The notes beneath the pieces are model-generated. The model did no database searches and was not told the DNA's origin. It saw only the letters and a program-made list of their open reading frames with translations. A program made the position numbers and the translations under genes. A DNA stretch of 64,000 nucleotides, taken from contig QZJF01000016.1 in NCBI GenBank assembly GCA_003599255.1, forward strand, positions 863-64,862. The letters are read 5' to 3'. The DNA is from a candidate division WWE3 bacterium (GTDB lineage Bacteria; Patescibacteriota; WWE3; UBA101185; UBA10185). This document shows positions 3,715 to 62,631 of this stretch, one piece after another; position 1 is the stretch's first letter, and each line of letters starts with the position of its first letter.

Positions 3715-3899
3715 AAATTTAGTACATTCATGTATCAGTGATAATTATACAGGATTTACAAGGGTGGAAGATTGTTAATATGAAGAAACGTTCGAACTTT
3801 CTGCCGTATTTTTATAAGTCTTAATAATATGTTATGTTGTAACGAATGTAATCCCTAAGTACACACGTTTAGAACATTTTAAGGAGTTAGTACTATATT

Positions 3900-4628
3900 A
3901 TGAGCAACCAAGAAAGCTCTACCGTAATCCTGTTACATGGTTGGGGAGGCGTTGCTTTTTCGTGGCAGACCATAGAGCAAAGACTTAAGCAAATCGGGTA
4001 TCAATGCCTGAGTATTAGATTCCCCGGATTTGACCTGCCGCAGCCTTCAGAGCCTTGGGGTGTTCCTGAATATGCGGATTTTGTGTTGAACAGGCTTGAA
4101 CACCTTCAGTTAAAGCCTCCGTTCACATTTGTAGGACATTCGTTTGGTGGCCGAATAGCAATATATATTTCAGCTACCCGTCCGGATATGGTGGATAAAC
4201 TGATACTCACTGATTCAGCCGGTGTTGAGAATAGGCGTACACCGAAACTTCTTTTTGTGAGTACACTTTCCAAAGTGTTCAAGAAGCTGGATGGAGTACC
4301 GGTTGTGAATAAAATCAGCAGATCATTGCGTAAAATTATCTGGCGATTCACAGCCTCGCCGGATTACAGCAATGCCACCCCCATGATGCGGGAAATATTG
4401 AAGAAGGTTGTTGCCTTAAATCTTGAGCAATACCTTCCGAGTATTTGTGCTGATACATTAATAATATGGGGAGATCAGGACGAGGTGACCCCTATCAGGG
4501 ATGCAAAGGTTCTTAACCGCGGTATAAAAGGTTCAAGCCTTGTTGTGATTAAGGGTGCCGGTCATCATTCTCATATTTCGCATGTCCACGAATGGATGAA
4601 TTACGTCATTCATTTTCTGCGGAAGTGA
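3900..4628 (+). CDS. alpha/beta-hydrolase fold protein (paralog of the C-terminal domain of the MurF-like fusion)
   Basis: ILLHGWGG, VGHSFGG nucleophile elbow, C-terminal GHH. High similarity to residues ~495-735 of the 302-2509 protein. Confidence 0.8.
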   Translation: MSNQESSTVILLHGWGGVAFSWQTIEQRLKQIGYQCLSIRFPGFDLPQPSEPWGVPEYADFVLNRLEHLQLKPPFTFVGHSFGGRIAIYISATRPDMVDKLILTDSAGVENRRTPKLLFVSTLSKVFKKLDGVPVVNKISRSLRKIIWRFTASPDYSNATPMMREILKKVVALNLEQYLPSICADTLIIWGDQDEVTPIRDAKVLNRGIKGSSLVVIKGAGHHSHISHVHEWMNYVIHFLRK

Positions 4629-4716: not shown

Positions 4717-5262
4717 TTAGTAAGGTACTGATTTTATTTTTAATGTGTATCCGATAAGGTTAGAAATAATATGAATGAAGAAAAACAAAAAAATTACCGT
4801 TAAAACAGCCTGTATCGACACTCCATAGAAGACCATTGCCATAGTCATACTTAATGTTGAATGATCTATTTCATCAAAAGGTATCCACGGTTTATGCGGT
4901 GCTATGTTAAATAGCCTTTTCGCCACACTTTTAAGAACATCGCCTGCTAGGGCGCAAAATGACATTAACAAATACAGTACCGTGTTTTCCGTAAAATCTA
5001 AATTTAGCAGTTGATAATCTTGCAGATGTTTGTCAAACACCAGGTACTTAATAATTCCCGAAGCCATTCCAAAGAGTACCCCAAACAGGAAACCGCCGAC
5101 TGTTTTATGATCCCCAATGATTCTAATCCCATTGATCGATTTACCTAAATCCAAAGGTGTATTAATAGCGTTGAAAAACGGTATAAAGCGACTAATAACA
5201 GCACCCATATTGGCGAATGCGGCAGGCAAGTAGAAATACACGCAAGAAATCAGAAAACCCAT
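4717..5262 (-). CDS. CTP-dependent cytidylyltransferase-like membrane protein (CdsA/CarS-like, DUF46-type); assignment tentative
   Basis: 181 aa with multiple TM segments. Motif GDVLKSVAKR resembles the GDxxxSxxKR of the CTP:phosphatidate cytidylyltransferase family, but the PGHGG motif is absent. Confidence 0.35.
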   Translation of the reverse strand: MGFLISCVYFYLPAAFANMGAVISRFIPFFNAINTPLDLGKSINGIRIIGDHKTVGGFLFGVLFGMASGIIKYLVFDKHLQDYQLLNLDFTENTVLYLLMSFCALAGDVLKSVAKRLFNIAPHKPWIPFDEIDHSTLSMTMAMVFYGVSIQAVLTVIFLFFFIHIISNLIGYTLKIKSVPY

Positions 5263-19271: not shown

Positions 19272-19347
19272 GGGCGATTAGCTCAATTGGCAGAGCGCTC
19301 GTCTTATACACGAGTGGTTCCTGGTTCGATCCCAGGATCGCCCACCA
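19272..19347 (+). tRNA. tRNA-Ile with UAU anticodon (reads AUA), CCA encoded
   Basis: Cloverleaf with standard numbering: acceptor GGGCGAT/ATCGCCC identical to tRNA-Ile(GAU) at 56613-56689. Anticodon loop CTTATAC gives anticodon TAT. Confidence 0.75.
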
Positions 19348-31081: not shown

Positions 31082-32031
31082 ATGTTTATGCTCTCAATTT
31101 CTTTTATCGTTAGCAATCCTTTAAAAGAACCTATGACCTTAATATTGGCACTGGCATTAATTGTTCCCCATTTCAACGCCGTTTCCAGGGATTTTCCATG
31201 TACAATGGCCGCCATAAAACCGGCTGAAAATGAATCACCGGCCCCCGTCATGTCTTCAACAGGTCTTCCATCATCGTATATGCCTTGATGAGTTATTTTT
31301 ATACCGTCATAGGCACTTGATCCGCTGCTACCGTCTGTAATTACCGACAATTTCGGGCCCAATTCTGCAAGTTTCTTATGAAGTTCCTCACCGGACAAAG
31401 CGGATTCTGTCAGCCTTTGCGCTTCTTCTTTATTTACAAATAATATATCTGTAACTTTTAAAATATCTCTTAAAGCGGCAAGCCCGGTCTTCATGTGAAT
31501 TGTGCCGGGATTAAAAGCCAATCCCGTCCCTCTGTGTTTAGAAATGTATTCGATCAGCTCGTGCTGAAAACTTTCAAAACCTTCGGGCATTGATGTGTAA
31601 TATATATATTTTGGTTGCGGCCAATCTTGCAACGTGTACTGTCTTTTCCCATGATAAGAGAATATAGTTCTTTCTCCTTTGAAGACTATTATGGTGTGAA
31701 GATCGGTAGGAGTATCTTTGTTTTTTTTACAGAAATCGGTGTTAATGTCCCATGATTTAAGTTCGGAGATTATCCGGTCTGTGTTGGCGTCGTCCCCAAG
31801 TTCAGTATAAACAGCAGCATTAAGTTTTAGCAGTTTTGCTCCGATGGCTACATTAATAGCGTTTCCGGCCACACTAGTTTCAAAACTTTCCACGGGAATC
31901 TTGCTTCCATGAAAAAAACAAAACTTTTCGGACGAACCGTCAGCCGATTCAGTGAGCCCGGAATTATCACCGATTTTCATAAACAGATCAATTGAACTAT
32001 CTCCGATTGTTAATAAGTCAAGTTTATTCAT
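31078..32031 (-). CDS. pfkB-family carbohydrate kinase (ribokinase/fructokinase-like)
   Basis: GAGDSF anion-hole motif and N-terminal GG motif. 317 aa. Confidence 0.75.
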   Translation of the reverse strand: MNKLDLLTIGDSSIDLFMKIGDNSGLTESADGSSEKFCFFHGSKIPVESFETSVAGNAINVAIGAKLLKLNAAVYTELGDDANTDRIISELKSWDINTDFCKKNKDTPTDLHTIIVFKGERTIFSYHGKRQYTLQDWPQPKYIYYTSMPEGFESFQHELIEYISKHRGTGLAFNPGTIHMKTGLAALRDILKVTDILFVNKEEAQRLTESALSGEELHKKLAELGPKLSVITDGSSGSSAYDGIKITHQGIYDDGRPVEDMTGAGDSFSAGFMAAIVHGKSLETALKWGTINASANIKVIGSFKGLLTIKEIESINI

Positions 32032-33013
32032 TATCTTTGAGTATACTTAAAATTTTGTTAACTAAATGGTGTGCGCTGAGTCCGAATTTGTCCAGTAAAT
32101 CACTGTAATGACCGGACTCCCCGAAAGTATCCGGCATTCCGATTCTGCGTATAGGAACCGGGTACTTTTCTGATAATAATTCGGCAACCGCTCCCCCCAA
32201 CCCCCCTGATACTTGATGATTTTCTATTGTTACAACTCTCTTTGTCTTTTTGGCCGAGTGAACAATTGTGACTTCGTCGAGAGGCTTTATGGTCGGGGAG
32301 CTGATTACTTCTACGTTGACCTTGTGCGCCGCTCTTAGGATTTTTGCTGCGGACAGAACCTCGTACATAATCGGACCGCTGCTTATCAGTGTGATCTCAT
32401 CCCCCTCTACCAGTACTTGAGCTTTGCCAAACTCAAAAGGGGTACTTTCAGTAGTAATTTCGGGAGTTCCTTCTCTGCCCAGCCTCATGTAGATTGGACC
32501 CTTGTGTTTTGCGGCGTATTTTGCCGCCGCTTTTGCCTGATGGAAATCTATGGGTTCTATGACCGAAAAGTTTGGGAGAACCCTGGTGAGTGCTATATCT
32601 TCAAGACATTGAGCCATGCCCCCGTCATAACAATGCATGAGACCGGCGTGTGTCCCGATAATTTTAACGTTTGTGTTTGAGAAACTGATACTTAATCTAA
32701 TTTGTTCCCAGTTTCTTCCCGGGCTGAATATGGCAAAGGAGGCCATAAACGGAATTTTTCCGCTTAATGCCAATCCTGCAGCTATGCCGGTCATATTCTG
32801 TTCGGCTACTCCTATTTCAATGTATCTGTCAGGGAATTTATGTGCGAATAAGTCAACTTTTGTAGATTCCTTGAGATCTCCACACAAAACCACAATGTTC
32901 TCGTCCTTTTCACCCGCTTCTAACAACCCCAACCCAAAACCCTCACGGGTGCTTCTTTTTTCCGCACTTTTCTGGAATAGCTCCTTATTTAATTTCAGCT
33001 TACTGTTAAGCAT
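32024..33013 (-). CDS. transketolase, C-terminal (pyrimidine-binding) subunit
   Basis: Split-transketolase B subunit pattern. 329 aa. Confidence 0.85.
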   Translation of the reverse strand: MLNSKLKLNKELFQKSAEKRSTREGFGLGLLEAGEKDENIVVLCGDLKESTKVDLFAHKFPDRYIEIGVAEQNMTGIAAGLALSGKIPFMASFAIFSPGRNWEQIRLSISFSNTNVKIIGTHAGLMHCYDGGMAQCLEDIALTRVLPNFSVIEPIDFHQAKAAAKYAAKHKGPIYMRLGREGTPEITTESTPFEFGKAQVLVEGDEITLISSGPIMYEVLSAAKILRAAHKVNVEVISSPTIKPLDEVTIVHSAKKTKRVVTIENHQVSGGLGGAVAELLSEKYPVPIRRIGMPDTFGESGHYSDLLDKFGLSAHHLVNKILSILKDNE

Positions 33014-33021
33014 TAGGCAGA

Positions 33022-33612
33022 TTAATTGCTATCTTCGCTTGGAGTACTTTGTTCGTCAGTGGCTTCGTCGTTTTCTTCTTCGCAGGGTTCTTCTTCTTTA
33101 ACTCTTTCAAAATCAATACTCCAATCTGTTTTATTTATTGCGACCATATCTACAGCAATGTGGGGACTTACCTCAACCGTACAGTTTTCTCTTGGGAAAG
33201 TTTCGTGTAAGGCTATTAAGAGGGATTTTTTATCCTTGTCCTCATAAACTTTCTTTATCTTGATTGCATGCGTTTCAGGATCTTCAACTTCTGTTGCTAC
33301 TCCGATGACATATTCTTTATTAAAATCCACAGTTTCCTTAAGAGTCACCAACCCGGCCGGATCAATGTAATTTAAAAAGTCGTTGAGTTCTTCTTCACTT
33401 TTAATAACTCTCCTCTGTTTTTCGTACTGTTTACCTTCTTCTGTGTAGATTATTGTGGGAAAGTTTTCCAGCCTTCTTATCTGTGTACCCTTGTTAAATT
33501 TAGGAAGTTTAATCTCGTCTGCCAGTAGGAAGTATCCTGCCCCAAAAATCAAAAGAACGATTATTACTAGTGGTAATAAAGATATATAAATGAATTGTTT
33601 TTTATCAGTCAT
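33022..33612 (-). CDS. hypothetical membrane-anchored acidic protein inserted between the two transketolase subunit genes
   Basis: N-terminal TM then a soluble acidic domain. ATGACTGA overlap with the tkt-N stop, and 8-nt gap to tkt-C. Confidence 0.45.
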   Translation of the reverse strand: MTDKKQFIYISLLPLVIIVLLIFGAGYFLLADEIKLPKFNKGTQIRRLENFPTIIYTEEGKQYEKQRRVIKSEEELNDFLNYIDPAGLVTLKETVDFNKEYVIGVATEVEDPETHAIKIKKVYEDKDKKSLLIALHETFPRENCTVEVSPHIAVDMVAINKTDWSIDFERVKEEEPCEEENDEATDEQSTPSEDSN

Positions 33613-34477
33613 AGTCGCAACTAATTTTTCCGTCGAGGGAGCGCAAATCCCTCAGGGCTTTCATGGCTTCCTTTTTATCGGGAACCTTGCCGTGCCACTC
33701 AACTTTATACTCCATAAATTCTACACCCTTTCCCGGTATAGTGTGCGCAATTATTGCCGTGGGACGCTGACTCACAGCCCTTGCCATGTTACAGGCATTG
33801 ATAATCTCTTCAATGTTGTGGCCGTCAATTTCAACCACAAACCAGTTAAAAGCTTCTAACTTATCTCTTAGACTTTCAAGAGGCATCATATCTTCGGTGT
33901 AGCCGCTAAGTTGTATGTTATTACGGTCAATTATCCATGTAATGTTGTTTAAGCCGCTGTTACCTCCAAACATTGCCGCTTCCCATACTTGTCCTTCGTT
34001 CAGCTCCCCGTCTCCGGTCATGACATATACTCTATAGTTCTTTTTATCTAGTTTTGCTGCTAATGCCATGCCAATAGCTTGTGAGATGCCCTGTCCAAGT
34101 GAGCCGCTTGTGTTCTCGACCCCCGGAAGGCTTCCGTAAGCAGGATGTCCCTGCAATCTCGAGTTAATTTTTCTTAAAGTCCAAAGTTCTTTTTTTGGGA
34201 AATATCCCCGTTCAGATAAACTAGCATACCATACGGGACAGATATGTCCATTCGAAAGAACGAATCTGTCTCTGTCTTCCCAATCCGGTTTTTTCGGATC
34301 AATGTTGAGTATGTGAAAATACAATGCAGCAAAGATATCGGCTGTGTCCAAGGAACCTGCACTGTGGCCTGAACCAGCCTCTAACAGCATTTGGATAACA
34401 GTTTTCCTCAAATCGTTTGCTTTAGTCTCTAAACTTGATATTACAGGATTTTGACAGTGAATATGTGTGTCGGGCAT
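33605..34477 (-). CDS. transketolase, N-terminal (TPP-binding) subunit
   Basis: TPP-binding GDG...NE motif region (MTGDGELNEGQVWE) and GHP/GH motifs. ORF track start is TTG 34495; the first ATG at 34477 (MPDTHIH...) is preferred. Confidence 0.85.
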   Translation of the reverse strand: MPDTHIHCQNPVISSLETKANDLRKTVIQMLLEAGSGHSAGSLDTADIFAALYFHILNIDPKKPDWEDRDRFVLSNGHICPVWYASLSERGYFPKKELWTLRKINSRLQGHPAYGSLPGVENTSGSLGQGISQAIGMALAAKLDKKNYRVYVMTGDGELNEGQVWEAAMFGGNSGLNNITWIIDRNNIQLSGYTEDMMPLESLRDKLEAFNWFVVEIDGHNIEEIINACNMARAVSQRPTAIIAHTIPGKGVEFMEYKVEWHGKVPDKKEAMKALRDLRSLDGKISCDYD

Positions 34478-34484
34478 TAAATTC

Positions 34485-34513
34485 AGTATATTCAATTAGT
34501 ATATTTTGTTCAA
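34485..34513 (-). promoter_or_regulatory. sigma70-type promoter TTGAAC-17-TATACT only 7 nt upstream of tkt-N ATG (leaderless or near-leaderless transcript)
   Basis: On the plus strand, gttcaa at 34508-34513 and agtata at 34485-34490. No SD between the -10 and the ATG. Confidence 0.4.
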
Positions 34514-34525
34514 GTAAAGTTTTTA

Positions 34526-34554
34526 TTGACGTAGCCTGTAGGATTAGGTATAAA
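34526..34554 (+). promoter_or_regulatory. sigma70-type promoter TTGACG-17-TATAAA at the start of a GC-rich ORF-poor island
   Basis: Read directly. It is followed ~40 nt later by GGAGG and a tiny ORF. Confidence 0.35.
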
Positions 34555-35029
34555 AAAAGATAGTTCCTACGAACAATAAAAAAAGAAAGAGGAGGTGCCT
34601 ATGGCGGTGGTTTTTACCATGTGTTTCGATCTTTGAATGACCCTGGTGCATCGACCGCCTACCGCTAAGCGGAAATTATAGGCAGGTCAGAATGGAGTTG
34701 AAAATGAGAGTTTCATCTACCTTGTGAGAGGAGGTGATCCATTCTCGGTCTCATCGCCGGTCGTTGGGACTGTATATCGTAAGACAAAAAACTCGTTCGC
34801 GAAAGGAGGTGAGACTACATATGGAAGCGGTAGTGTTCATGAGCTAACTCGTGGCGCCGTCGATCGTGATGAGAGAGTTTGGGTAAAAGCAGCGGATGTT
34901 GACTGCCCGAACGCCTTACGTTGCAGCGAGCGTTACTGAGGGGTTAAACACTGAAGCTCTATGAGGTTGGTTGATGGTAAGTCGATCGTAGGTTTCCTGG
35001 TGGACATCACTGCCCCTTCTAATGCCCCC

Positions 35030-35084
35030 GCCCCCGTGTCTGAAATGGATTAAATCCAAATCTATGGCACGGGGGCTCTTCTTT
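35030..35084 (+). terminator. rho-independent terminator: perfect 9-bp GC-rich stem (gcccccgtg / cacgggggc), 29-nt loop, then tcttcttt
   Basis: Read directly. Confidence 0.45.
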
Positions 35085-35086
35085 GC

Positions 35087-35114
35087 TTGACAACTATTTT
35101 CAATCTGATAGTAT
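35087..35114 (+). promoter_or_regulatory. sigma70-type promoter TTGACA-16-TAGTAT driving a ~450-nt ORF-less transcript
   Basis: Read directly. Lies immediately after the upstream terminator. Confidence 0.4.
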
Positions 35115-35119
35115 TTCAC

Positions 35120-35516
35120 GCACCCAGAGATTTTTAACAAGAAAATCTAGATAAAGGTCGCATTTTTGGCCTTCGCAAAACTGGCGATGTCGCGCCGTTG
35201 CCAGAATTCCAGATTCCGTTTTTACAGTAGAGGTCGGTCTGTCCGGATCGTCTGAGGGAATTTTGGAATTTTTTTAGCGCGCTCTGTTCTTCGCACTCTT
35301 TATGTGGAGATCGTGTGTAAAACAAACGTTTCTAGAACGTTTGCGGAATGGCGGCACCATTTCACTCACGAGCGGCCTACGCACGGAGAAATCGCAAAGC
35401 CTAGTTGCTTACCTCTTGTGACTAGTAACTTTGCCCAACCTTTTCACCCGGGCGAGAGATGAAACATAATGCGAGTTGGTTTCTACAACCCTCTCTCCCC
35501 GGTGATAAAACAAAAC
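35120..35516 (+). ncRNA. candidate non-coding RNA of unknown class (GC-rich, no ORF >26 codons, bounded by predicted promoter and terminator)
   Basis: Defined only by the flanking promoter (35087-35114) and terminator (35517-35570). No RNase P, tmRNA, SRP or riboswitch motifs were recognised by eye. Confidence 0.25.
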
Positions 35517-35570
35517 GGAGCCTTCTTGAGTATGCTTAACGCAAACTTGAAAAGGCTCCTTGTTTTTTTT
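35517..35570. terminator. bidirectional rho-independent terminator (stem ggagcctt/aaggctcc, then T8 on + strand and a U-rich tract on - strand)
   Basis: Read directly. Immediately downstream of the Rpe-LOG gene stop (35577). Confidence 0.55.
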
Positions 35571-35576
35571 AGAACT

Positions 35577-36806
35577 TTAATCTTTCTTTAGACTTTTTAG
35601 AAACTCAATAACTTCTTCGGGTGTTGTACAGATTTTTAACATATCCTCTTCGCTGTTTTTTAAGAGCATGTGTTTATGAATAACGTCCAAAAAGTCCTGC
35701 CAAAACGCCCCGAAAAGAATGATAGGTTTGTTATTTGGTTCATGTATCCATGAACTTATCCAGCTCATTCCAAACTCGCTGAGTGTTCCTATACTTCCTT
35801 TAAAAACGATATGAACCTGTGTAGTTTGCAGCATTACTTTAGTTCTGTCGAAGTAGTCCAATGTTATTACTTCGTCGTCAAAGTGGTTTTCCGGGTCAAC
35901 GCCTTCATAATGTCTTTTAGGTTTATTCGGGTGATAGGTGATTGCAAGTACCTTTCCGCCTCCTGCATGTGCTCCCTCTGTGGAAGCTCTCATTACCCCG
36001 GGTCCCCCGCCGTTTACTACTTCAAATCCTGCCTCTGCAACAGCTCTTGCTGTTTCATATGCTTCTTTGTAGGGTTGATCATTCTCAACCCAAGCCGCAC
36101 CTCCTAAGAAAGCAACTTTCGTTATTCTTTCCCGTTTTAAGGTAACAATAGTTTCTTCATTATTTATATCTTGTTTGTTTTGCATGCTTGTTAATTGTAA
36201 ATATTTTTTTCTCGGATTTGTACTACCAAATATTGCTGATCCTATTATCATATCATCTACGCCGGCATGTACTATTCCCGGAATGGTTTTCTCATTCACC
36301 CCGCCATCGACCTGAATTTGGACTTTAGGGTATGTGAGCTTGAATCTTTCGATTTTCTGCAGTACGCCCGGAATGAAATCTCTGCCCTGACCCCCGGGGA
36401 TTATGGTCATAAATTGGACAAAGTCCAGGTCTTTTACAAAATCCTGAATTATTTCAAAATCAGTGGTTGGTCCGAGAGACAGGCCAACTCTATAACCCAG
36501 TATTTTGGCTTTTTTTATGAATTCTTCGACTTCAGCTTTGCTCCCGAACCCTTCAATTTGGGAACATATTTTTACTGCATTTTTGATTTTTACAAGATAA
36601 TCAAGAGGATTTACTACAAGAAGATGCAGATCGTATTTGAGATTTGATTCCAAATTGTTTAGAGCTTCAATATCCTGAAAAGTGGAGCCCTCAAAGAGTT
36701 TACCGTCAACAAAATCTATCTGTACCATCTCCGAGAAGCTCTCCGCAATGCTAACTTTATCTTCAATATCCCTGAAGTTTTTTTCTAGAATGGCAGGAAT
36801 TATCAT
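35577..36806 (-). CDS. fusion protein: ribulose-phosphate 3-epimerase (N-terminal) plus LOG-family domain (TIGR00730, cytokinin riboside 5'-monophosphate phosphoribohydrolase-like, C-terminal)
   Basis: Rpe motif QVDGGVN...AGVDDMIIGSAIF. LOG motifs KVAFLGGAAW, NGGGPGVMRA and KGSIGTLSEF (GGGxGxM / PGGxGTxxE). Confidence 0.7.
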   Translation of the reverse strand: MIIPAILEKNFRDIEDKVSIAESFSEMVQIDFVDGKLFEGSTFQDIEALNNLESNLKYDLHLLVVNPLDYLVKIKNAVKICSQIEGFGSKAEVEEFIKKAKILGYRVGLSLGPTTDFEIIQDFVKDLDFVQFMTIIPGGQGRDFIPGVLQKIERFKLTYPKVQIQVDGGVNEKTIPGIVHAGVDDMIIGSAIFGSTNPRKKYLQLTSMQNKQDINNEETIVTLKRERITKVAFLGGAAWVENDQPYKEAYETARAVAEAGFEVVNGGGPGVMRASTEGAHAGGGKVLAITYHPNKPKRHYEGVDPENHFDDEVITLDYFDRTKVMLQTTQVHIVFKGSIGTLSEFGMSWISSWIHEPNNKPIILFGAFWQDFLDVIHKHMLLKNSEEDMLKICTTPEEVIEFLKSLKKD

Positions 36807-43218: not shown

Positions 43219-44070
43219 CTAAAATAGTTCTTTCTGGGCAGAGGGGTTGTAACCTGTTTTCTTTTGTTGACATTCAGGGCAGAAGTAGGTACCACGTCCC
43301 TGTATTTTTATATGTTGAACCTCGGAGAAGCACGTAGGACATTTTGATTTCATATATATTTTAAATGATTCCTGGTACTTTCCCGGTCTGCCAAATATAT
43401 CAACATACATTTTGTCGGGAAGGGTACTGCCGCGCTTTTCTATGCCCTCGTTCAGCACGGATCTGGCTGCTGTTAGCAGTTTTTCCGCGCTTTGGTAATC
43501 GATGTCTTTTGTCGGAGTTTCCGGGTGTATTCCCGATAGAAACAGCGCTTCCGTAGCATAGATGTTTCCTAATCCGGCAACAATCGACTGATCTAGAAGC
43601 GCGTTTTTAATTATTGTGTTCTTTTGTTTAAGCACCTCAAGAAATGTCTTTGTATCGAGATCAGTATTTATAGGTTCCGGCCCGTATTTTTGGGTAAGTT
43701 TTTCTACTTCTGACTTATCGAGCACTGCTACCTTGCCGAACATGCGCATATCGGAAAATACCATTACTTTATTAATAGCGTTTTTCTGCAAATAGAATAC
43801 AGCTCTTACCCAGTTAGTACCTTTTTCTTGTTTGTCCAATAATAATACCCTCCCAGTCATTGCTAAATGTATCAAGACAGTGTATTCGTCAGTCTCAACT
43901 AGAATATTTTTTGCGACCCGACGAATATCTCTTATCTCGCTGTCTTTAACTAAGGACGGTTCTCCCGATATTTTGTAACCGGCTTGAGCATTTAAACTCA
44001 CAATATTAAAGCCCAAAACGGTTTTTTTTAAATCACTTGTTATGGTGTGTACTTCTGGTAATTCCGGCAC
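43219..44070 (-). CDS. mutM: formamidopyrimidine-DNA glycosylase (Fpg/MutM)
   Basis: N-terminal MPELPEV. C-terminal zinc finger CPTC...CPEC. Confidence 0.85.
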   Translation of the reverse strand: MPELPEVHTITSDLKKTVLGFNIVSLNAQAGYKISGEPSLVKDSEIRDIRRVAKNILVETDEYTVLIHLAMTGRVLLLDKQEKGTNWVRAVFYLQKNAINKVMVFSDMRMFGKVAVLDKSEVEKLTQKYGPEPINTDLDTKTFLEVLKQKNTIIKNALLDQSIVAGLGNIYATEALFLSGIHPETPTKDIDYQSAEKLLTAARSVLNEGIEKRGSTLPDKMYVDIFGRPGKYQESFKIYMKSKCPTCFSEVQHIKIQGRGTYFCPECQQKKTGYNPSAQKELF

Positions 44071-53338: not shown

Positions 53339-53554
53339 AGGTTGTTATAATGAACAGGAATAACTGTTGACTTAATGATATTAAGTTGCTATCTTCCAGT
53401 TTGCTAGCAAATATATGCTAGAATTATTCGTTGTTTTGTTAATTCCGAAGAGAACTTTGAAATATACATAGATAGAGCAATCCTTGAACAATTAGTTTGA
53501 GTACCTTAAGTAACTTTGAAATTTTCGAGGTTCAAGAGGTAAGAAGAATATTTT

Positions 53555-55024
<1,470 letters not shown>

Positions 55025-55253
55025 CTAGGGAGAAAACACGTATCTTTGATTGATGGAATCTTGTGTTTGCTATACGCAAACAAAGGCCATTGAAATAGAA
55101 GATACAACATATATCCGATAGCTCTGAGGATATGTGTTTTAGGCTGTTATGTGTTGCCTCACAACAGCTGAGCAAGTTCGACAGTAAGCTTAAACTGTCA
55201 AAAGAAATATTCTTCTTGCCTTTTGGATCTTGAAATTTATATTGTTTGAAACT

Positions 55254-55622
55254 TTAGGACCTGGCTCTATCTCTGTATTCGTAACCAAGCATAATTAATT
55301 TTTGCTTCTGTTCATCATTTAAGTCTTTCCCGATTTCCTGCAGGAAGTCCTGCAACATTACTCTAATTGATTCTTCCAGATGTGTTTGGATTTCATCCTC
55401 TTTCCAGTATTTTTTAATAACCTGAGTTAATTCTTCAATATTGGCTGTTGGTGTAAAAATTTCATCAGAGCCTATTTTAGATTTAGTATCAGCCCCAAGT
55501 CTTAGAACAGCATTCCTGAATATCTTATCTGCAACATCTGTGGAAACTTCGTCTGCATTGTCAATTCCAATGCCGTTTAATAAATCAAACAAAAATTGTT
55601 TTAAAAGATTTTGATCATTCAT
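55254..55622 (-). CDS. hypothetical protein (antisense to rRNA orientation, in 16S-23S interval)
   Basis: 122-aa ORF whose start overlaps the upstream ORF stop (ATGA coupling). Confidence 0.35.
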   Translation of the reverse strand: MNDQNLLKQFLFDLLNGIGIDNADEVSTDVADKIFRNAVLRLGADTKSKIGSDEIFTPTANIEELTQVIKKYWKEDEIQTHLEESIRVMLQDFLQEIGKDLNDEQKQKLIMLGYEYRDRARS

Positions 55623-56035
55623 TACGATTCCTTTTCCTGTTGATTTTCAAAATGTTCTGCTGCTCTGCCGAAATATCTCGACATTCCATAGCCTACTGCG
55701 GCGCCGATGCTGCCAGAGATCACTCCGGCAGGGTTCCCGGTCACGGCTCCAATTGGAACTGTACCGGCTGACATGCTTCCCGTAACCAAAGTGCCTTTGC
55801 TTAGCGATTTAGCCAATTTTGCTCTTTCTTCATCTGTTTCTGCCCCTTTCTCAATATACTTTATTGCCATCCCTAATGCCGCTTCATCCATTCTTTCCAG
55901 CCAACCGCCTATAGTTTGCTTAATAGTTTCCATGTTACTAAGTTGTTCGGGTTGGGATATATCCGCAACACTTTCTGTTGCGTCTTCCGCCGAAAAATTC
56001 TCGTGTTCTGCGTCGTCTTTTAAAAACTCACTCAC
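55622..56035 (-). CDS. hypothetical protein with C-terminal glycine-zipper hydrophobic segment
   Basis: Acidic N-terminal half, then GTLVTGSMSAGTVPIGAVTGNPAGVISGSIGAAVGYG (GxxxG repeats). GTG start; start uncertain. Confidence 0.35.
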   Translation of the reverse strand: MSEFLKDDAEHENFSAEDATESVADISQPEQLSNMETIKQTIGGWLERMDEAALGMAIKYIEKGAETDEERAKLAKSLSKGTLVTGSMSAGTVPIGAVTGNPAGVISGSIGAAVGYGMSRYFGRAAEHFENQQEKES

Positions 56036-56109
56036 CTAATTATTATCAAACGGGCGGTAACTGAAGTCAACCGTTGTCGTGACTTGATTTAATGGTGTAA
56101 AATGCACCT

Positions 56110-56529
56110 ATGACAATAACTAATGGTAAAGAAAAAGGAATTGCAGTCGGAGTTGTCAAGAATCCTGCAGGAAAAGTGTTGATAATGGATAGGATAAGAA
56201 AAGAAACCGGTGCTGACGGAAGCAAGCTTACCTGGGTCTTTCCAGGGGGAAAGCTTGACGGTTCCGAAACGTTTGAAGACGCAGTTGTCCGCGAAATTTT
56301 GCTGGAAACAGGGTTTAAGGTAAAAGTTAACAAACTTATCTCCGAAAGAGTTCATCCGCAATTTGAGGTCCCGATCAAATACTTTGCCTGCGAATTAGCC
56401 GAATTTCGGACAAGGCCCATACAGGAAATTCACGAAGTATCAACAATAAGATGGGTAGATGTCTCAGAGCTACGCGATTACTTTACTACGGATATTGATC
56501 CCAACGTCGCGAAGTTTTTAAAGATTTAG
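56110..56529 (+). CDS. NUDIX hydrolase
   Basis: Nudix box GGKLDGSETFEDAVVREILLETG (Gx5Ex7REUxEExGU). Confidence 0.75.
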   Translation: MTITNGKEKGIAVGVVKNPAGKVLIMDRIRKETGADGSKLTWVFPGGKLDGSETFEDAVVREILLETGFKVKVNKLISERVHPQFEVPIKYFACELAEFRTRPIQEIHEVSTIRWVDVSELRDYFTTDIDPNVAKFLKI

Positions 56530-56541
56530 CCTAAATGTTCT

Positions 56542-56564
56542 TGGTGGGCGATCGTGGACTCGAA
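56542..56564. repeat. 23-nt direct repeat identical to the 3' end (T-loop to CCA) of the adjacent tRNA-Ile(GAU); att-site-like duplication
   Basis: tggtgggcgatcgtggactcgaa occurs at 56542-56564 and again at 56613-56635 (the tRNA 3' end on the minus strand). The copies are 48 nt apart. Confidence 0.6.
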
Positions 56565-56612
56565 GACGCTCGCTTCGTTCGCTTGGTTCTCGTTGAGTAG
56601 ACCAAAAGTATA

Positions 56613-56689
56613 TGGTGGGCGATCGTGGACTCGAACCACGGACCTTTCCCTTATCAGAGGAATGCTCTAACCACCTGAGCTAATCGCCC
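56613..56689 (-). tRNA. tRNA-Ile (anticodon GAU), CCA encoded, antisense to the rRNA genes
   Basis: Cloverleaf: GGGCGAT acceptor, anticodon loop CTGATAA, T-loop TTCGAGT. Confidence 0.85.
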
Positions 56690-56765
56690 TAGAAACAGAT
56701 GAATTCTACCATGTGATTTCTCCGGAAGTCTACGCTAGATCAATATATTATGATAACATTTTGGT

Positions 56766-57821
56766 ATGTACAAGCTTTTTGCTTTACTTTTTTTCTCTCT
56801 ACCTCCACTGTTACTATTTGCCATTCTGCTTAGAGTGGACGACAATCTTGGTTTTGGTCTGACAATATATCTGTTTTTGGCAATTCTGCTCCTTTATGTG
56901 ATATTTTTTGTTCTGGTCATTTTTCGCAGTATGTTTCAGATGAAAAAGGAACTCGCCGTAAGCCGTTTCATGAAGCTTCTGTCTGATGAGTTTCACATTG
57001 TATCTAAAAAATACTCTTTTTTTGTCAATTCCTTGTTGTTTTCCTGGTTGGTTGTTTTGGTTTTTATCATGTTTTACACAGTGAGTTTTATGTTTGCGCA
57101 ATATGTGGGAAAGCATTATGGAGATGAGATTAGAAATTTCCTGAAACAGCCTACGGTTAGCACATCGGACTTGTTGAATACAACTGAGGAGATGAAAGAT
57201 GAGTTGCGGGACCTCAAAACAAAGTTTTACGAACAAAATCAGTTAGATTTTTTTTCCAATAATTCTAGTACTTACTCTGAGGAGGAGGCACCTTACATTG
57301 TATTCTTAGATTTCAGCTTCCGCGAGGATTCCTCACCGGGGTTCAAGAGTTATTTTCTGTACTCTGTAAACATCTGTGCCGACGATGATCCGGAAAGTAT
57401 TGGGGTAGAGAGATGTTTGGATATCAGAGGTCCCATGGATTCTGAACTAAAGTTTAAATTCGCAAAGGAAGAAACTGTGTCGAATATTAATTTACGGGAG
57501 ATTTATGCCGCGGATTTTAACCAGCCATTCTTTGTACTCGAAATTGAAACAAATCTTAGGGATGCAGCGGTGCTGGTATATCCTGTCGATACTGATGATC
57601 TAAGCTACTCATACATTCCAAATACCAGTATCAACTCCGAGGCGAAGTTCGCAACATATGTGCAGGTCAATCAAATACAGAACGGTATTGTTTTTCTCGA
57701 ACGTATCAGGGACTTAGTAAACGGAGTAGTTGATGATACCGGAAAAGATCTGCATGTCACTGTTTTTAAAGAGAATGGTATTGTGAACTACCAGTATTCT
57801 CCGGTTAACGTCCAGCCCTAA
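56766..57821 (+). CDS. hypothetical membrane protein
   Basis: 351 aa. Four N-terminal TM segments followed by a soluble domain. Confidence 0.45.
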   Translation: MYKLFALLFFSLPPLLLFAILLRVDDNLGFGLTIYLFLAILLLYVIFFVLVIFRSMFQMKKELAVSRFMKLLSDEFHIVSKKYSFFVNSLLFSWLVVLVFIMFYTVSFMFAQYVGKHYGDEIRNFLKQPTVSTSDLLNTTEEMKDELRDLKTKFYEQNQLDFFSNNSSTYSEEEAPYIVFLDFSFREDSSPGFKSYFLYSVNICADDDPESIGVERCLDIRGPMDSELKFKFAKEETVSNINLREIYAADFNQPFFVLEIETNLRDAAVLVYPVDTDDLSYSYIPNTSINSEAKFATYVQVNQIQNGIVFLERIRDLVNGVVDDTGKDLHVTVFKENGIVNYQYSPVNVQP

Positions 57822-57830
57822 TTTTAATTT

Positions 57831-58829
57831 ATGAAACAATACCCCAAAGTAGTAGTTATAGGCGGAGGAACAGGAACATATGCTGTTCTTTCGGGTTTAA
57901 AGAAATATCCGGTCCATTTATCTGCAATTGTTACCATGATGGATTCCGGAGGTTCGACCGGAAGATTAAGAGACCAATTAGGTGTGCTGCCTCCAGGAGA
58001 TTTGAGACAGTCATTGGTAGCGCTTTCAGAATCTACTGAAATATGGAGAAACCTGTTCGCATATAGGTTTGATAACGGTGATCTGGAGGGGCACAATTTT
58101 GGAAACATATTTTTGTCGTCACTTGAGATGATAACTGGTTCAAATGAACGCGCTATTCATTACGCTGCAAGACTATTGAAGACAAAAGGAAAGGTAATTC
58201 CCGTTACGTTAACAAAATCCACTCTATGTGCAAAATATTCTGACGGAACAATCCTTGAAGGGGAAAAGCTAATAGATTACGCGCCGGCACCCAGAGCGCG
58301 TATAAATTATGTTTATCTTTCCCCTAGAGCCGTAATAAATCCTAACGCCAGAAAAGCCATAGAAACAGCCGATTTCTTGATATTCGGACCGGGAGACCTG
58401 TATACAAGCATTATTCCTAATTTAATAGTGGACGACATGGATGATGCAATTAGAAAAAGTAAAGCGAATAAAATATTTTGTATAAATTTAATGACTAAGT
58501 TGGGCCAGACTGATGGATTTAAGGCCTCCGATTTTGTCACTGAGCTATATAAGTACCTGGGCGGGGCAATGGTAGATTCTCTGGTTGTAAACAATAAAGA
58601 ACCGGATAAGGAAGTGGTAGATTGGTACGCACGATCGGGGGACGCATTCCTGGTTGAAGACGATCTTGATTCAATTGGCGGGGACATAGAGGTTTTTAGG
58701 GGAGATTTGCTTAGTGATACGCGCTATGAACAGTCTTTGTCTGATAGGATCCAAAGGAGCTTAATCCGACACGATCCGGACAAACTGGCAAAAGTGCTAT
58801 CCGAAGTTATCCAGAAAATCTTAGGTTGA
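57831..58829 (+). CDS. YvcK/CofD-like (UPF0052, gluconeogenesis factor family) protein
   Basis: N-terminal VVVIGGGTGTYAVLSGLK and family-typical length. Confidence 0.7.
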   Translation: MKQYPKVVVIGGGTGTYAVLSGLKKYPVHLSAIVTMMDSGGSTGRLRDQLGVLPPGDLRQSLVALSESTEIWRNLFAYRFDNGDLEGHNFGNIFLSSLEMITGSNERAIHYAARLLKTKGKVIPVTLTKSTLCAKYSDGTILEGEKLIDYAPAPRARINYVYLSPRAVINPNARKAIETADFLIFGPGDLYTSIIPNLIVDDMDDAIRKSKANKIFCINLMTKLGQTDGFKASDFVTELYKYLGGAMVDSLVVNNKEPDKEVVDWYARSGDAFLVEDDLDSIGGDIEVFRGDLLSDTRYEQSLSDRIQRSLIRHDPDKLAKVLSEVIQKILG

Positions 58830-59088
58830 CATCACTTTATACCGGTGCTAGAGTATCAGGTACGGAATGGGTAGTTCAACTTCCATATGGACTTTCTTTG
58901 CGTTTTTATGCGCAGGAATCTTAAAAAGATTCTTCAGGAAGCTCTGAATATCTATGTTTTAAACAATTGAATGTGAATAGTTTTACTTGTTGATTAAGTG
59001 TGCTACATTAGTGAGACCTGCAGTATGTTAGGCCAATGAGTGCATTCTCGGTCCTGCCTACGCGGGCTTGTACAGTCCCGTAAGTTTA

Positions 59089-59164
59089 CGGGCCTGTAGC
59101 TTAGTTGGTAGAGCGCCGCATTTGCATTGCGGAGGTCACGGGTTCGAATCCCGTCGGGTCCACC
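59089..59164 (+). tRNA. tRNA-Ala (anticodon UGC), CCA encoded
   Basis: G3·U70 identity pair. Anticodon loop TTTGCAT. T-loop GGTTCGAATCC. Confidence 0.9.
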
Positions 59165-59254
59165 AGATTAGTAAGTGCCCTTTGAAAACTGAATAAAAGT
59201 ATCTGATTTCGAAAGAAGTCAGGATACGAAAACTCTAAATTTTATGACAACAAT

Positions 59255-62385
<3,131 letters not shown>

Positions 62386-62514
62386 TATGAAGTCATAGAG
62401 AAGAGTTTTTGTATTCGGCTTTAGCCGCTTTACGCGCTTGCGCGAAAGGGGCCGGAGGCCACTTTTATTCAGTTTTTAGAGGGTACGAACATTAAAAATA
62501 AGTTTGTGTTCAGC

Positions 62515-62631
<117 letters not shown>

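Follow-up and report, generated by a model that had tools for sequence, protein, structure and literature searches.

In the cry3A mRNA of Bacillus thuringiensis, an orphan Shine-Dalgarno (SD) sequence known as STAB-SD binds the 30S subunit and blocks RNase J1 (PMC4113751), and P6 of the OLE RNA mimics a duplex of SD and anti-SD (ASD) sequences and is bound by bS21 (PMC12054373). Among the SD-blind Bacteroidia the ASD is retained for the sake of a single gene with an extended SD, rpsU, where the SD reads out the availability of free 16S tails in an autoregulatory loop via bS21 (PMC7797042, PMC9976891, PMC13000453). Why SD-free bacteria conserve an anti-SD tail is an open question that has been answered for the Bacteroidia alone (rpsU autoregulation, rRNA processing). 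Here we describe a locus that would offer a second, independent case, in the candidate phyla radiation (CPR), with a non-coding RNA instead of a ribosomal-protein gene as the partner of the tail. The DNA analysed, referred to throughout as the window, is a stretch of 64,000 nucleotides (nt) from an AT-rich (41% GC) member of candidate division WWE3 (Katanobacteria), in which three sequences strongly complementary to the 3' tail of the genome's own 16S rRNA lie between the genes tktN and rpe-LOG. Our preferred reading, to which we give a probability of roughly 0.4, is that these elements are 16S 3'-tail binding sites on a lineage-specific, independently transcribed, structured non-coding RNA, termed RNA-A, which probably acts by engaging ribosomes and not by making protein. 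As it has no downstream protein gene, no match to OLE and no rpsU, RNA-A belongs to none of the STAB-SD, OLE or Bacteroidia rpsU systems.

The 16S rRNA gene of the window (Rfam match 53553-55024) ends in TGGATCACCTCCTTTCT at 55010-55026 (longer form GGATCACCTCCTTTCT), a tail whose sequence is the same as in Bacillus. The motif AGGAGGTG occurs on the + strand at 34590, 34729 and 34804, three copies within 222 nt; the whole window holds seven, one of which is the antisense of the 16S gene itself, against 1.39 expected, and none of 100 shuffles reaches seven. When 16-nt windows on both strands were scored for duplex energy against GAUCACCUCCUUUCU, the three elements (SD1, SD2 and SD3, in 5' to 3' order; Table 1) gave -16.0, -25.6 and -21.7 kcal/mol respectively, compared with -25.9 for the perfect antisense of the 16S gene and -16.8 for the next best site. 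With 20-nt windows, the best site in the gap between the two genes reached -29.8 kcal/mol and the best site elsewhere outside the rRNA genes -17.6, and SD2 and SD3 exceed every other non-rRNA site in the 128 kb of strand searched by 5-12 kcal/mol. The original prediction, made from the letters of the sequence, had reported three near-maximal anti-SD matches here; copy-number excess and duplex energies both confirm it, and a chance origin of the three elements is excluded.

The individual sites differ in how they meet the tail. SD2, first described as a 12-nt match, is an extreme tail complement which that description understated: its perfect stretch runs to 13 bases (AGGAGGTGATCCA, 34729-34741), its duplex with the 16S 3' tail runs unbroken through 16 pairs, 15 of them Watson-Crick and one G.U, and 15 of the 16 bases of SD2 are the same as in the antisense of 55010-55025. 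For SD3 the 12-nt claim holds as made, its core GAAAGGAGGTGA (34802-34813) being a perfect complement, and the pairing of SD1 covers 12 nt, including one G.U and one mismatch or, alternatively, a bulged A. Beyond their common core the matches grow in different directions, SD2 on the 3' side (GATCCA) and SD3 and SD1 on the 5' side (GAAAG), which is the pattern expected from selection for the tail itself and not from repetition of a motif. A repeat or mobile element was considered and rejected, there being no second copy in the window and no matches other than the 12-16 nt held in common with the end of the 16S gene. A duplicated module for all three sites was likewise rejected, as only SD1 and SD3 are similar beyond the SD, and marginally so.

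These elements stand in a genome that is otherwise poor in SDs, as judged in the window and in syntenic loci of its relatives. Across 62 long open reading frames (ORFs) of the window, the mean SD energy upstream of the first start is -3.4 kcal/mol against a random-position background of -3.7, and for 14 independently called starts on the same contig it is -2.7 (strongest -6.5) against a background of -4.9, in keeping with the earlier remark that SDs elsewhere in the window are weak. SD energies in six related loci are likewise not above background. With the SDs of genes no stronger than background, SD pairing is therefore essentially unused by this clade for the genes in question, and the canonical anti-SD tail of the 16S rRNA is kept, in the window and in the syntenic loci, despite this. 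A retained anti-SD, mRNAs without SDs and an exceptional transcript with extended SDs together recall the rpsU arrangement of the Bacteroidia; the SDs of RNA-A differ in that they precede non-conserved ORFs of 8-14 codons, or nothing, and no ribosomal-protein gene.

The three elements lie in the largest gene-free stretch of the window outside the rRNA genes (34496-35576), in a GC island that had been noted earlier and is real: GC content is 0.47-0.51 across 34600-35100, compared with 0.41 for the window and 0.32 directly upstream. All three fall within the first 260 nt of the predicted RNA-A. The segment 34560-35080 folds more stably than shuffled sequences on the + strand (z = -4.19) and hardly so on the - strand (z = -0.84). 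Transcription of RNA-A is predicted to start at about 34561, from a promoter-like site back to back with that of tktN; this region aligns with the promoter region of the nearest relative (locus L083) at a score that 13 of 2000 shuffles reach. The site is missing from our promoter scan because the scan demands a T at the last position of the -10 hexamer, and the terminator-like hairpin at the other end is missing from the terminator scan because its loop exceeds 8 nt. An attenuator, one of the functions first proposed, is not supported in that form: the + strand carries no protein gene further downstream, RNA-A has its own hairpin and U-rich tail, and the neighbouring transcript, RNA-B, has a promoter-like site of its own.

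The same strand bias bears on one of four rivals, which were weighted in the order of a mini-ORF switch, cis helices that mimic the SD:ASD duplex, a foreign relic and a product of the - strand. In the last of these, the functional molecule would be a - strand RNA whose three 16S-tail mimics (GGAUCACCUCCU, UCACCUCCUUUC and CACCUCCUCUUUCU) bind the SDs of mRNAs. That strand does read as three near-copies of the 16S 3' end and carries one promoter-like site (34704-34675, -), but its fold is no better than shuffles and a genome almost without SDs provides scarcely any targets. Read-through on that strand is not expected either, because rpe-LOG has a bidirectional terminator and tktN its own leaderless promoter; the tktN mRNA is predicted to be leaderless (the independently called start maps to 34477), so that the - strand of the insert need not be transcribed. 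We consider such a product barely credible.

Within RNA-A, each element is predicted to pair with a partner strand that resembles the 16S tail, imperfectly. SD2 pairs with UCAUCUACCUU at a predicted probability of 0.93-0.99, in a hairpin of about -11 kcal/mol (-10.8 to -11.2) as opposed to about -30 for the tail duplex, and its tail-matching bases UCC at 34738-34740 are predicted to be unpaired inside RNA-A. For SD3 and the strand at 34747-34764 the predicted probability is about 0.85, with an internal duplex of -22.7 against -23.7 kcal/mol for the tail. SD1, some 25-30 nt from the predicted 5' end, would close on CCUUCU at 35015-35020, beside the terminator (predicted probability about 0.67; -10.4 internal against -17.2 kcal/mol with the tail).

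Such pairings could be the whole purpose of the elements, which would then be halves of cis helices that mimic an SD:ASD duplex and never meet the tail, as a site for a protein such as bS21 or as plain scaffolding. The predicted pairing of all three (probabilities 0.67-0.99), the neat hairpin predicted for SD2 with its GNRA-type GUGA loop and similar pairings in relatives, where an orphan element of L211 folds onto the tail-like CCUCCUCUCU and that of L214 pairs with GAUUGUACCUU, all speak for it, and P6 of the OLE RNA is a precedent (PMC12054373). Set against this, the real tail is a far better partner than the internal strands (-29.8 against -11.2 kcal/mol for SD2, -17.2 against -10.4 for SD1), tail-matching bases lie outside the internal helix, the substitutions between L211 and L212 preserve pairing with the tail, and a structural helix has no reason to carry a 12-16 nt anti-SD complement three times over. 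We regard this reading as improbable. The likeness to OLE is that of a large structured non-coding RNA with a helix of anti-SD-like and SD-like strands, predicted in the case of RNA-A, which the OLE covariance model does not match, whether at the gathering threshold or with E allowed to rise to 10. The roles of the strands are reversed between the two: in OLE the tail core is exact (CCUCCU) and its partner SD-like, whereas in RNA-A the SD strands are exact and the tail-like strands imperfect. OLE moreover occurs in SD-using Bacillota, and the host of RNA-A is SD-poor.

Table 1. Features of the tktN to rpe-LOG junction (positions in the window); transcripts, signals and pairing partners are predictions.
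Feature	Positions	Strand	Sequence or product	Basis or remark
tktN	33605-34495	-		one flank of the gene-free stretch
tktN promoter	34477-34513	-	TTGAAC, 17 nt, TATACT, then 7 nt to ATG 34477	scan
RNA-A promoter-like site	34526-34554	+	TTGACG, 17 nt, TATAAA	read by eye
RNA-A, predicted independent structured non-coding transcript, ~515 nt	~34561-35080	+		fold, signals, no coding potential
SD1	34583-34598	+	AAGAAAGAGGAGGTGC	-16.0 to -17.2 kcal/mol with the tail
mini-ORF1	34601-34636	+	MAVVFTMCFDL, stop TGA	ATG 5 nt after GGAGG
mini-ORF2	34637-34681	+	MTLVHRPPTAKRKL, stop TAG	without an SD of its own
Internal 16S-tail-like strand and loop	34713-34727	+	UCAUCUACCUU (34713-34723), then GUGA tetraloop (34724-34727)	predicted partner of SD2
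SD2, orphan site	34726-34741	+	GAGAGGAGGTGATCCA	-25.6 (16-nt windows) and -29.8 (20-nt windows) kcal/mol with the tail
Internal tail-like strand	34747-34764	+	GGUCUCAUCGCCGGUCGU	predicted partner of SD3; inverted repeat I5
SD3	34799-34816	+	GCGAAAGGAGGTGAGACT	-21.7 to -23.7 kcal/mol with the tail
mini-ORF3	34821-34847	+	MEAVVFMS, stop TAA	ATG 11 nt after GGAGG
3' tail-like strand	35013-35021	+	CCCCUUCUA	predicted closure on SD1 (5'-3' closure of RNA-A)
Terminator-like hairpin	35031-35089	+	CCCCCGUGUC...GGCACGGGGG, then U-rich tail CUCUUCUUUGCUUG	read by eye; minimum-free-energy and centroid structures
RNA-B, predicted structured transcript	35087-35570	+	transcript ~35121-35570	scan and fold
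rpe-LOG	35577-36806	-		other flank of the gene-free stretch

Both flanking genes are part of a conserved series of pentose-phosphate and glycolytic genes, the order in WWE3 being ligase ... LGT, rpiB, rpe-LOG, [gap], tktN, an ORF of unknown function, tktC, pfkB and fba. In the window the insert between rpe-LOG and tktN is 1.1 kb long and is filled by RNA-A and RNA-B. Its length varies by lineage: 4 nt in L210, 225 in L003, 251 in L083, 294 in L214, 300 in L212, 333 in L211, 620 in L213, 879 in L086, 887 in L209 and 2235 in L085, with other genes at this place in L208. The gap sequences of these syntenic relatives do not align with the window or, for the most part, with one another. The long gaps are nevertheless built alike, with a promoter-like site, an SD and a tiny or small ORF, a structured body and a hairpin terminator, on the strand opposite to the flanking genes in all but L003, where the strand is the same. 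Every locus (5-64 kb) was searched on both strands for its best tail complement, a search space of which the RNA strand of the gap makes up 1-3%. Ten loci bear a gap (the window, L211, L212, L003, L083, L214, L085, L086, L209 and L213), and in six of them the best complement of the entire locus falls in the gap, on the RNA strand: -29.8 kcal/mol in the window, -26.1 in L211 (AGAAAGGAAGGTGATCC), -23.1 in L212 (AGAAGGGAGCGTGGTC), -20.0 in L003, -18.8 in L083 (AGAAAGGAGG followed by ATG) and -18.2 in L214. At some loci the recurring site serves as the SD of a tiny ORF that is not conserved; at others it is an orphan.

L211, L212 and L214 form one clade (78-80% protein identity), and their element is an orphan: no start codon follows it, and it lies 8-58 nt ahead of the terminator. 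Among the differences between L211 and L212 are two changes of A to G opposite a U of the tail, which keep the pairing as G.U. The orphan of L211 lies adjacent to the strand on which it is predicted to fold, itself nearly a copy of the tail. In L083, the A-rich untranslated region with its SD AAAAAAGAAAGGAGG resembles the region of SD1, and this SD is predicted to close on UUCCUUCU on its 3' side, as SD1 does in RNA-A. L003, a WWE3 genome from GTDB, presents an SD, a mini-ORF and an orphan AAGGTGATTC at 3731-3955 (+), on the strand of tktN and about 200 nt upstream of it, and the orientation of the module is therefore not fixed. In L213 the gap encodes, at 4824-5042 (-), a protein of 72 amino acids that combines a single hydrophobic helix with a long tail, basic and rich in glycine; small protein genes can therefore occupy the junction as well as RNAs.

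Junction variability would also fit a foreign relic, that is, DNA from a donor with strong SDs, for instance a decayed leader of the Firmicutes type, now without function. SDs of the AGAAAGGAGGTGATCC type are typical of Bacillota; the insert is absent from some relatives (the 4-nt gap of L210) and cannot be aligned in others, and its GC content exceeds that of the surrounding intergenic DNA. A relic, however, would not account for strong strand-specific predicted structure with intact promoter-like and terminator-like signals, nor for complementarity of 12-16 nt, beyond that of ordinary SDs, and no residual similarity to proteins in any frame or match to phage was found. The strong-SD donor suggested in the original prediction meets the same obstacles: no protein match (among 5.8 billion), no phage match, and recurrence of extreme tail complements at this junction in separate WWE3 lineages. 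We consider a relic very unlikely.

One of the two closest parallels in mechanism, beside the SD:ASD mimic of the OLE RNA, is that of an orphan SD acting on RNA stability. STAB-SD is a complement of the 16S 3' end, SD-like (GAAAGGAGG type), that does not direct translation; SD2 and the orphans of L211, L212 and L214 are comparable. Complementarity to the 16S 3' end spans 12-16 nt at -16 to -30 kcal/mol in RNA-A. The lack of a start codon 5-12 nt after SD2 was claimed originally and is upheld, for neither ATG, GTG nor TTG is found there; the only candidate nearby is an ATT at 34741, which has ideal spacing and would open a frame of 13 codons, and SD1 and SD3 precede ATGs. There are also clear differences. 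STAB-SD sits near the 5' end of the untranslated region of a protein-coding mRNA, whereas RNA-A has no protein gene downstream on its strand; RNA-A has three sites, pairing over 12-16 nt and predicted to be pre-paired, and the orphan sites lie in the middle of the RNA or, in relatives, near the 3' end. The work on STAB-SD as a stabiliser reportedly goes back to Agaisse and Lereclus in 1996 and to Mathy and colleagues in 2007.

On the preferred reading, each site would be kept paired to a weaker internal strand, similar to the 16S tail, which acts as a lid, and a 30S subunit or ribosome with a free tail would out-compete that strand (for SD2, about -30 against -11 kcal/mol). SD1 may be the ancestral part, common to the window and its nearest relative; SD1 and SD3 would also load ribosomes onto tiny ORFs with peptides unconserved between lineages, and SD2 would be a pure landing pad. 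Binding might protect or remodel the RNA, as with STAB-SD, or it might sequester or sense ribosomes whose tail is free. Ribosome titration had been among the functions originally proposed, and this part of the proposal survives in a qualified form: ribosome binding is the reading that best accommodates extensions that match the real tail, an SD-poor genome and recurrence at the junction, which support it in part.

Several points weigh against this reading. Firstly, all three sites are predicted to be base-paired within RNA-A, and SD3 may never open because its internal helix and its tail duplex have nearly equal stabilities. Secondly, position is not that of a 5' stabiliser, SD2 lying about 170 nt from the predicted 5' end and the orphans of L211, L212 and L214 near the 3' end. 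Thirdly, four of the ten gap-bearing loci (L085, L086, L209 and L213) lack an outstanding tail complement in the gap, no sequence homologue of RNA-A was found (the nearest organism is about 60% identical in a conserved enzyme), and neither RNase J nor bS21 was found among the window ORFs scanned. Fourthly, the promoters, terminators and helices are themselves predictions. Finally, a peptide motif common to two of the mini-ORFs suggests that two or more of the sites serve translated peptides as ordinary ribosome-binding sites, albeit very strong ones.

That motif is AVVF, at codons 2-5 of mini-ORF1 and codons 3-6 of mini-ORF3. The translations of the three mini-ORFs (MAVVFTMCFDL*, MTLVHRPPTAKRKL and MEAVVFMS) were confirmed by retranslation. 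Mini-ORF2 was said to start on an ATG that overlaps the stop of mini-ORF1, which is incorrect: TGA (34634-34636) and ATG (34637-34639) abut without overlap, and mini-ORF2 starts on the codon right after the stop, in the same frame. A recoded TGA that would join the two was ruled out, as TGA ends 16 of 62 ORFs. The shared A-V-V-F core is unlikely to arise by chance as a peptide (probability about 4e-4 in composition-matched simulations) but only marginal as DNA, where the likeness of the two modules has p of about 0.05 with gaps and is not significant without them; within AVVF there are three synonymous third-position differences, and two 3-nt indels separate the ORFs. That the two mini-ORFs are related, as first suggested, is thus plausible from the motif, the synonymous changes and the codon-sized indels, on very little data, but the peptides are not conserved between lineages. 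The proposed look for AVVF in related contigs came out negative, the motif being absent from ORFs in the gaps of relatives. Gap peptides differ completely from lineage to lineage (MKILAI, MKFYGADDGRKV, MVKKEIIIGP, an 18-mer in L003, MADAPPY, MCDTPPG). The act of translation, if translation matters, is more likely to be what counts than the peptide product.

The rival that draws most on these ORFs holds that they encode leader or arrest peptides. SD1 and SD3 would be true ribosome-binding sites, translation or stalling would rearrange the SD/anti-SD helices in the manner of erm leaders, and SD2 would serve as an anti-anti-SD decoy, the output being termination or read-through of RNA-A, into RNA-B or antisense into rpe-LOG. 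Besides the shared AVVF, with its synonymous changes and codon-sized indels, this reading can call on usable SD-to-ATG spacings and on the SD and mini-ORF that every gap-bearing relative has near the start of its gap transcript. The stop codon in L083 is followed some 10 nt later by a GC-rich hairpin, and a tail-like ACCUU is predicted to pair with the 5' SD in L212 and with the orphan site in L214, which has a switch-like look. On the other hand, no protein gene follows on the + strand, the peptides are unconserved between lineages, and the DNA likeness of the two modules is marginal at best. The partner strands of SD2 and SD3 are, moreover, transcribed before those elements, so translation of mini-ORF1 is not obviously coupled to them, and a decoy needs complementarity to the internal strand only, not 16 pairs with the real tail. 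We give a leader-peptide switch a smaller chance than the preferred reading, but it is a live rival and the first of the four.

Three SDs in about 220 nt, with short ORFs and sequestered SDs, resemble erm leader regions, a likeness used as a lead and not as a test. The leaders of ermA and ermC contain the arrest motifs IAVV (the stalling motif of L1) and IFVI (PMC12698558, PMC8274638). The resemblance extends to several strong SDs within about 200 nt, to their sequestration in alternative hairpins and to ORF size and content, erm leader ORFs being 8-19 codons long and rich in beta-branched hydrophobic residues; short ORFs with an SD of their own are present in RNA-A (mini-ORF1 and mini-ORF3). 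The differences are that RNA-A has no regulated downstream gene (no ORF above 74 amino acids, and a terminator-like hairpin), no evidence of drug sensing and a peptide that is unconserved between lineages.

Fold-back of one end of an RNA onto the other is familiar from type I toxin mRNAs (hok, aapA1), in which it sequesters the SD of a toxin ORF that is typically at least 18 amino acids long. RNA-A recalls these mRNAs in being highly structured, in its lineage-specific location between genes and in the predicted closure of SD1 on the tail-like strand just ahead of the terminator, but its ORFs, of 11, 14 and 8 codons, lack the length needed for a membrane toxin, and there is no sign of an antisense RNA, the - strand having one weak promoter-like site.

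Were the preferred reading true, it would add a natural RNA that targets the mRNA-docking tail of the ribosome, and would provide a search criterion for more such RNAs in SD-poor genomes, namely extreme tail complements outside genes. A wider and decidedly tentative idea, which we think has a smaller chance of being right, is that WWE3, having dropped initiation led by SDs, keeps the anti-SD tail partly as a dock for a dedicated class of fast-evolving non-coding RNAs, small or long, beside pentose-phosphate genes. These RNAs would pair with it over up to 16 nt, carry lids that mimic the tail, and sequester or sense ribosomes that have their tail free, such as immature subunits or subunits without bS21, making them natural anti-SD sponges or sensors.

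Searches for a known identity of the insert were negative. RNA-A and RNA-B contain no ORF above 74 amino acids, no gap ORF of at least 37 amino acids has a Pfam match, and the six-frame translation of the gap, compared with 5.8 billion proteins, gave no match with an E of 10 or less. With both the Pfam and the six-frame searches empty, a pseudogene or missed gene was rejected. Neither the gathering threshold nor a limit relaxed to E of 10 brought any Rfam family for the window insert, and the inserts of L083, L085 and L086 likewise gave none; RNase P RNA, tmRNA, SRP RNA or 6S RNA in disguise was dismissed in the absence of any weak Rfam match or ARAGORN match. Phage origin was also set aside, a blastn search in distant mode having given no match. 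There is no second copy of RNA-A or RNA-B in the window, and no sequence homologue of RNA-A upstream of tktN in 80 GTDB loci. A pattern of three AGGAGGTG motifs at this spacing proved too unspecific, returning only glycine-rich coding repeats from viral contigs, and a stricter two-site pattern returned nothing from viral contigs. The fusion protein encoded by rpe-LOG is annotated as coming from a WWE3 metagenome-assembled genome, and its closest relative among the 5.8 billion proteins is 62% identical. Other samples yielded the same contig, and because these copies are 100% identical, close variants for comparison are absent.

RNA-B, which follows RNA-A on the same strand, is predicted to start from a promoter-like site found by the scan (TTGACA, 16 nt, TAGTAT with a TG extension) and to form a chain of about 12 hairpins over some 450 nt (z = -6.19 on the + strand against -2.20 on the - strand). 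Its predicted end is a bidirectional terminator, with the stem at 35517-35559 and the U-run at 35560-35570, which directly adjoins the rpe-LOG stop codon and would serve that gene too. RNA-B has no 16S-tail site at or below -13 kcal/mol, and pairing between RNA-A and RNA-B is no better than between shuffles.

A number of further observations concern the relatives and the remainder of the window. The gaps of L086 (about 6545-6522, -) and L209 (about 5926-5903, -) hold similar ORFs of seven codons (MADAPPY* and MCDTPPG*, x-D-x-P-P-x), each behind an SD; the RNA around them does not align, and the likeness may be due to chance or to a conserved proline-stalling leader. The leaderless type of promoter layout seen for tktN is readable in L212 and L214 too. 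Transketolase is split into N-terminal and C-terminal genes in the window (32024-34495, -) and in the relatives, with a conserved ORF of about 190 amino acids and no Pfam match between the halves in every syntenic relative, and Rpe is fused to a LOG/SLOG domain across the whole clade. The rRNA genes (53553-62630) do not form a compact operon, the 16S (53553-55024) and 23S (59257-62387) genes being 4.2 kb apart. Between them stand five ORFs, including a NUDIX hydrolase and a CofD-like protein, and a tRNA-Ile(GAU) on the opposite strand (56613-56689), and a tRNA-Ala directly precedes the 23S gene. The 23S match spans 3131 nt against a model of 2925 positions, which suggests about 200 nt of inserted sequence, a typical trait of rRNA genes in the CPR. 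At 19272-19347 (+) lies a tRNA-Ile whose anticodon, UAU (tat in the gene sequence), is unusual, and a second gene-free gap, of 737 nt and with a GC content of 0.40, lies at 43296-44032.

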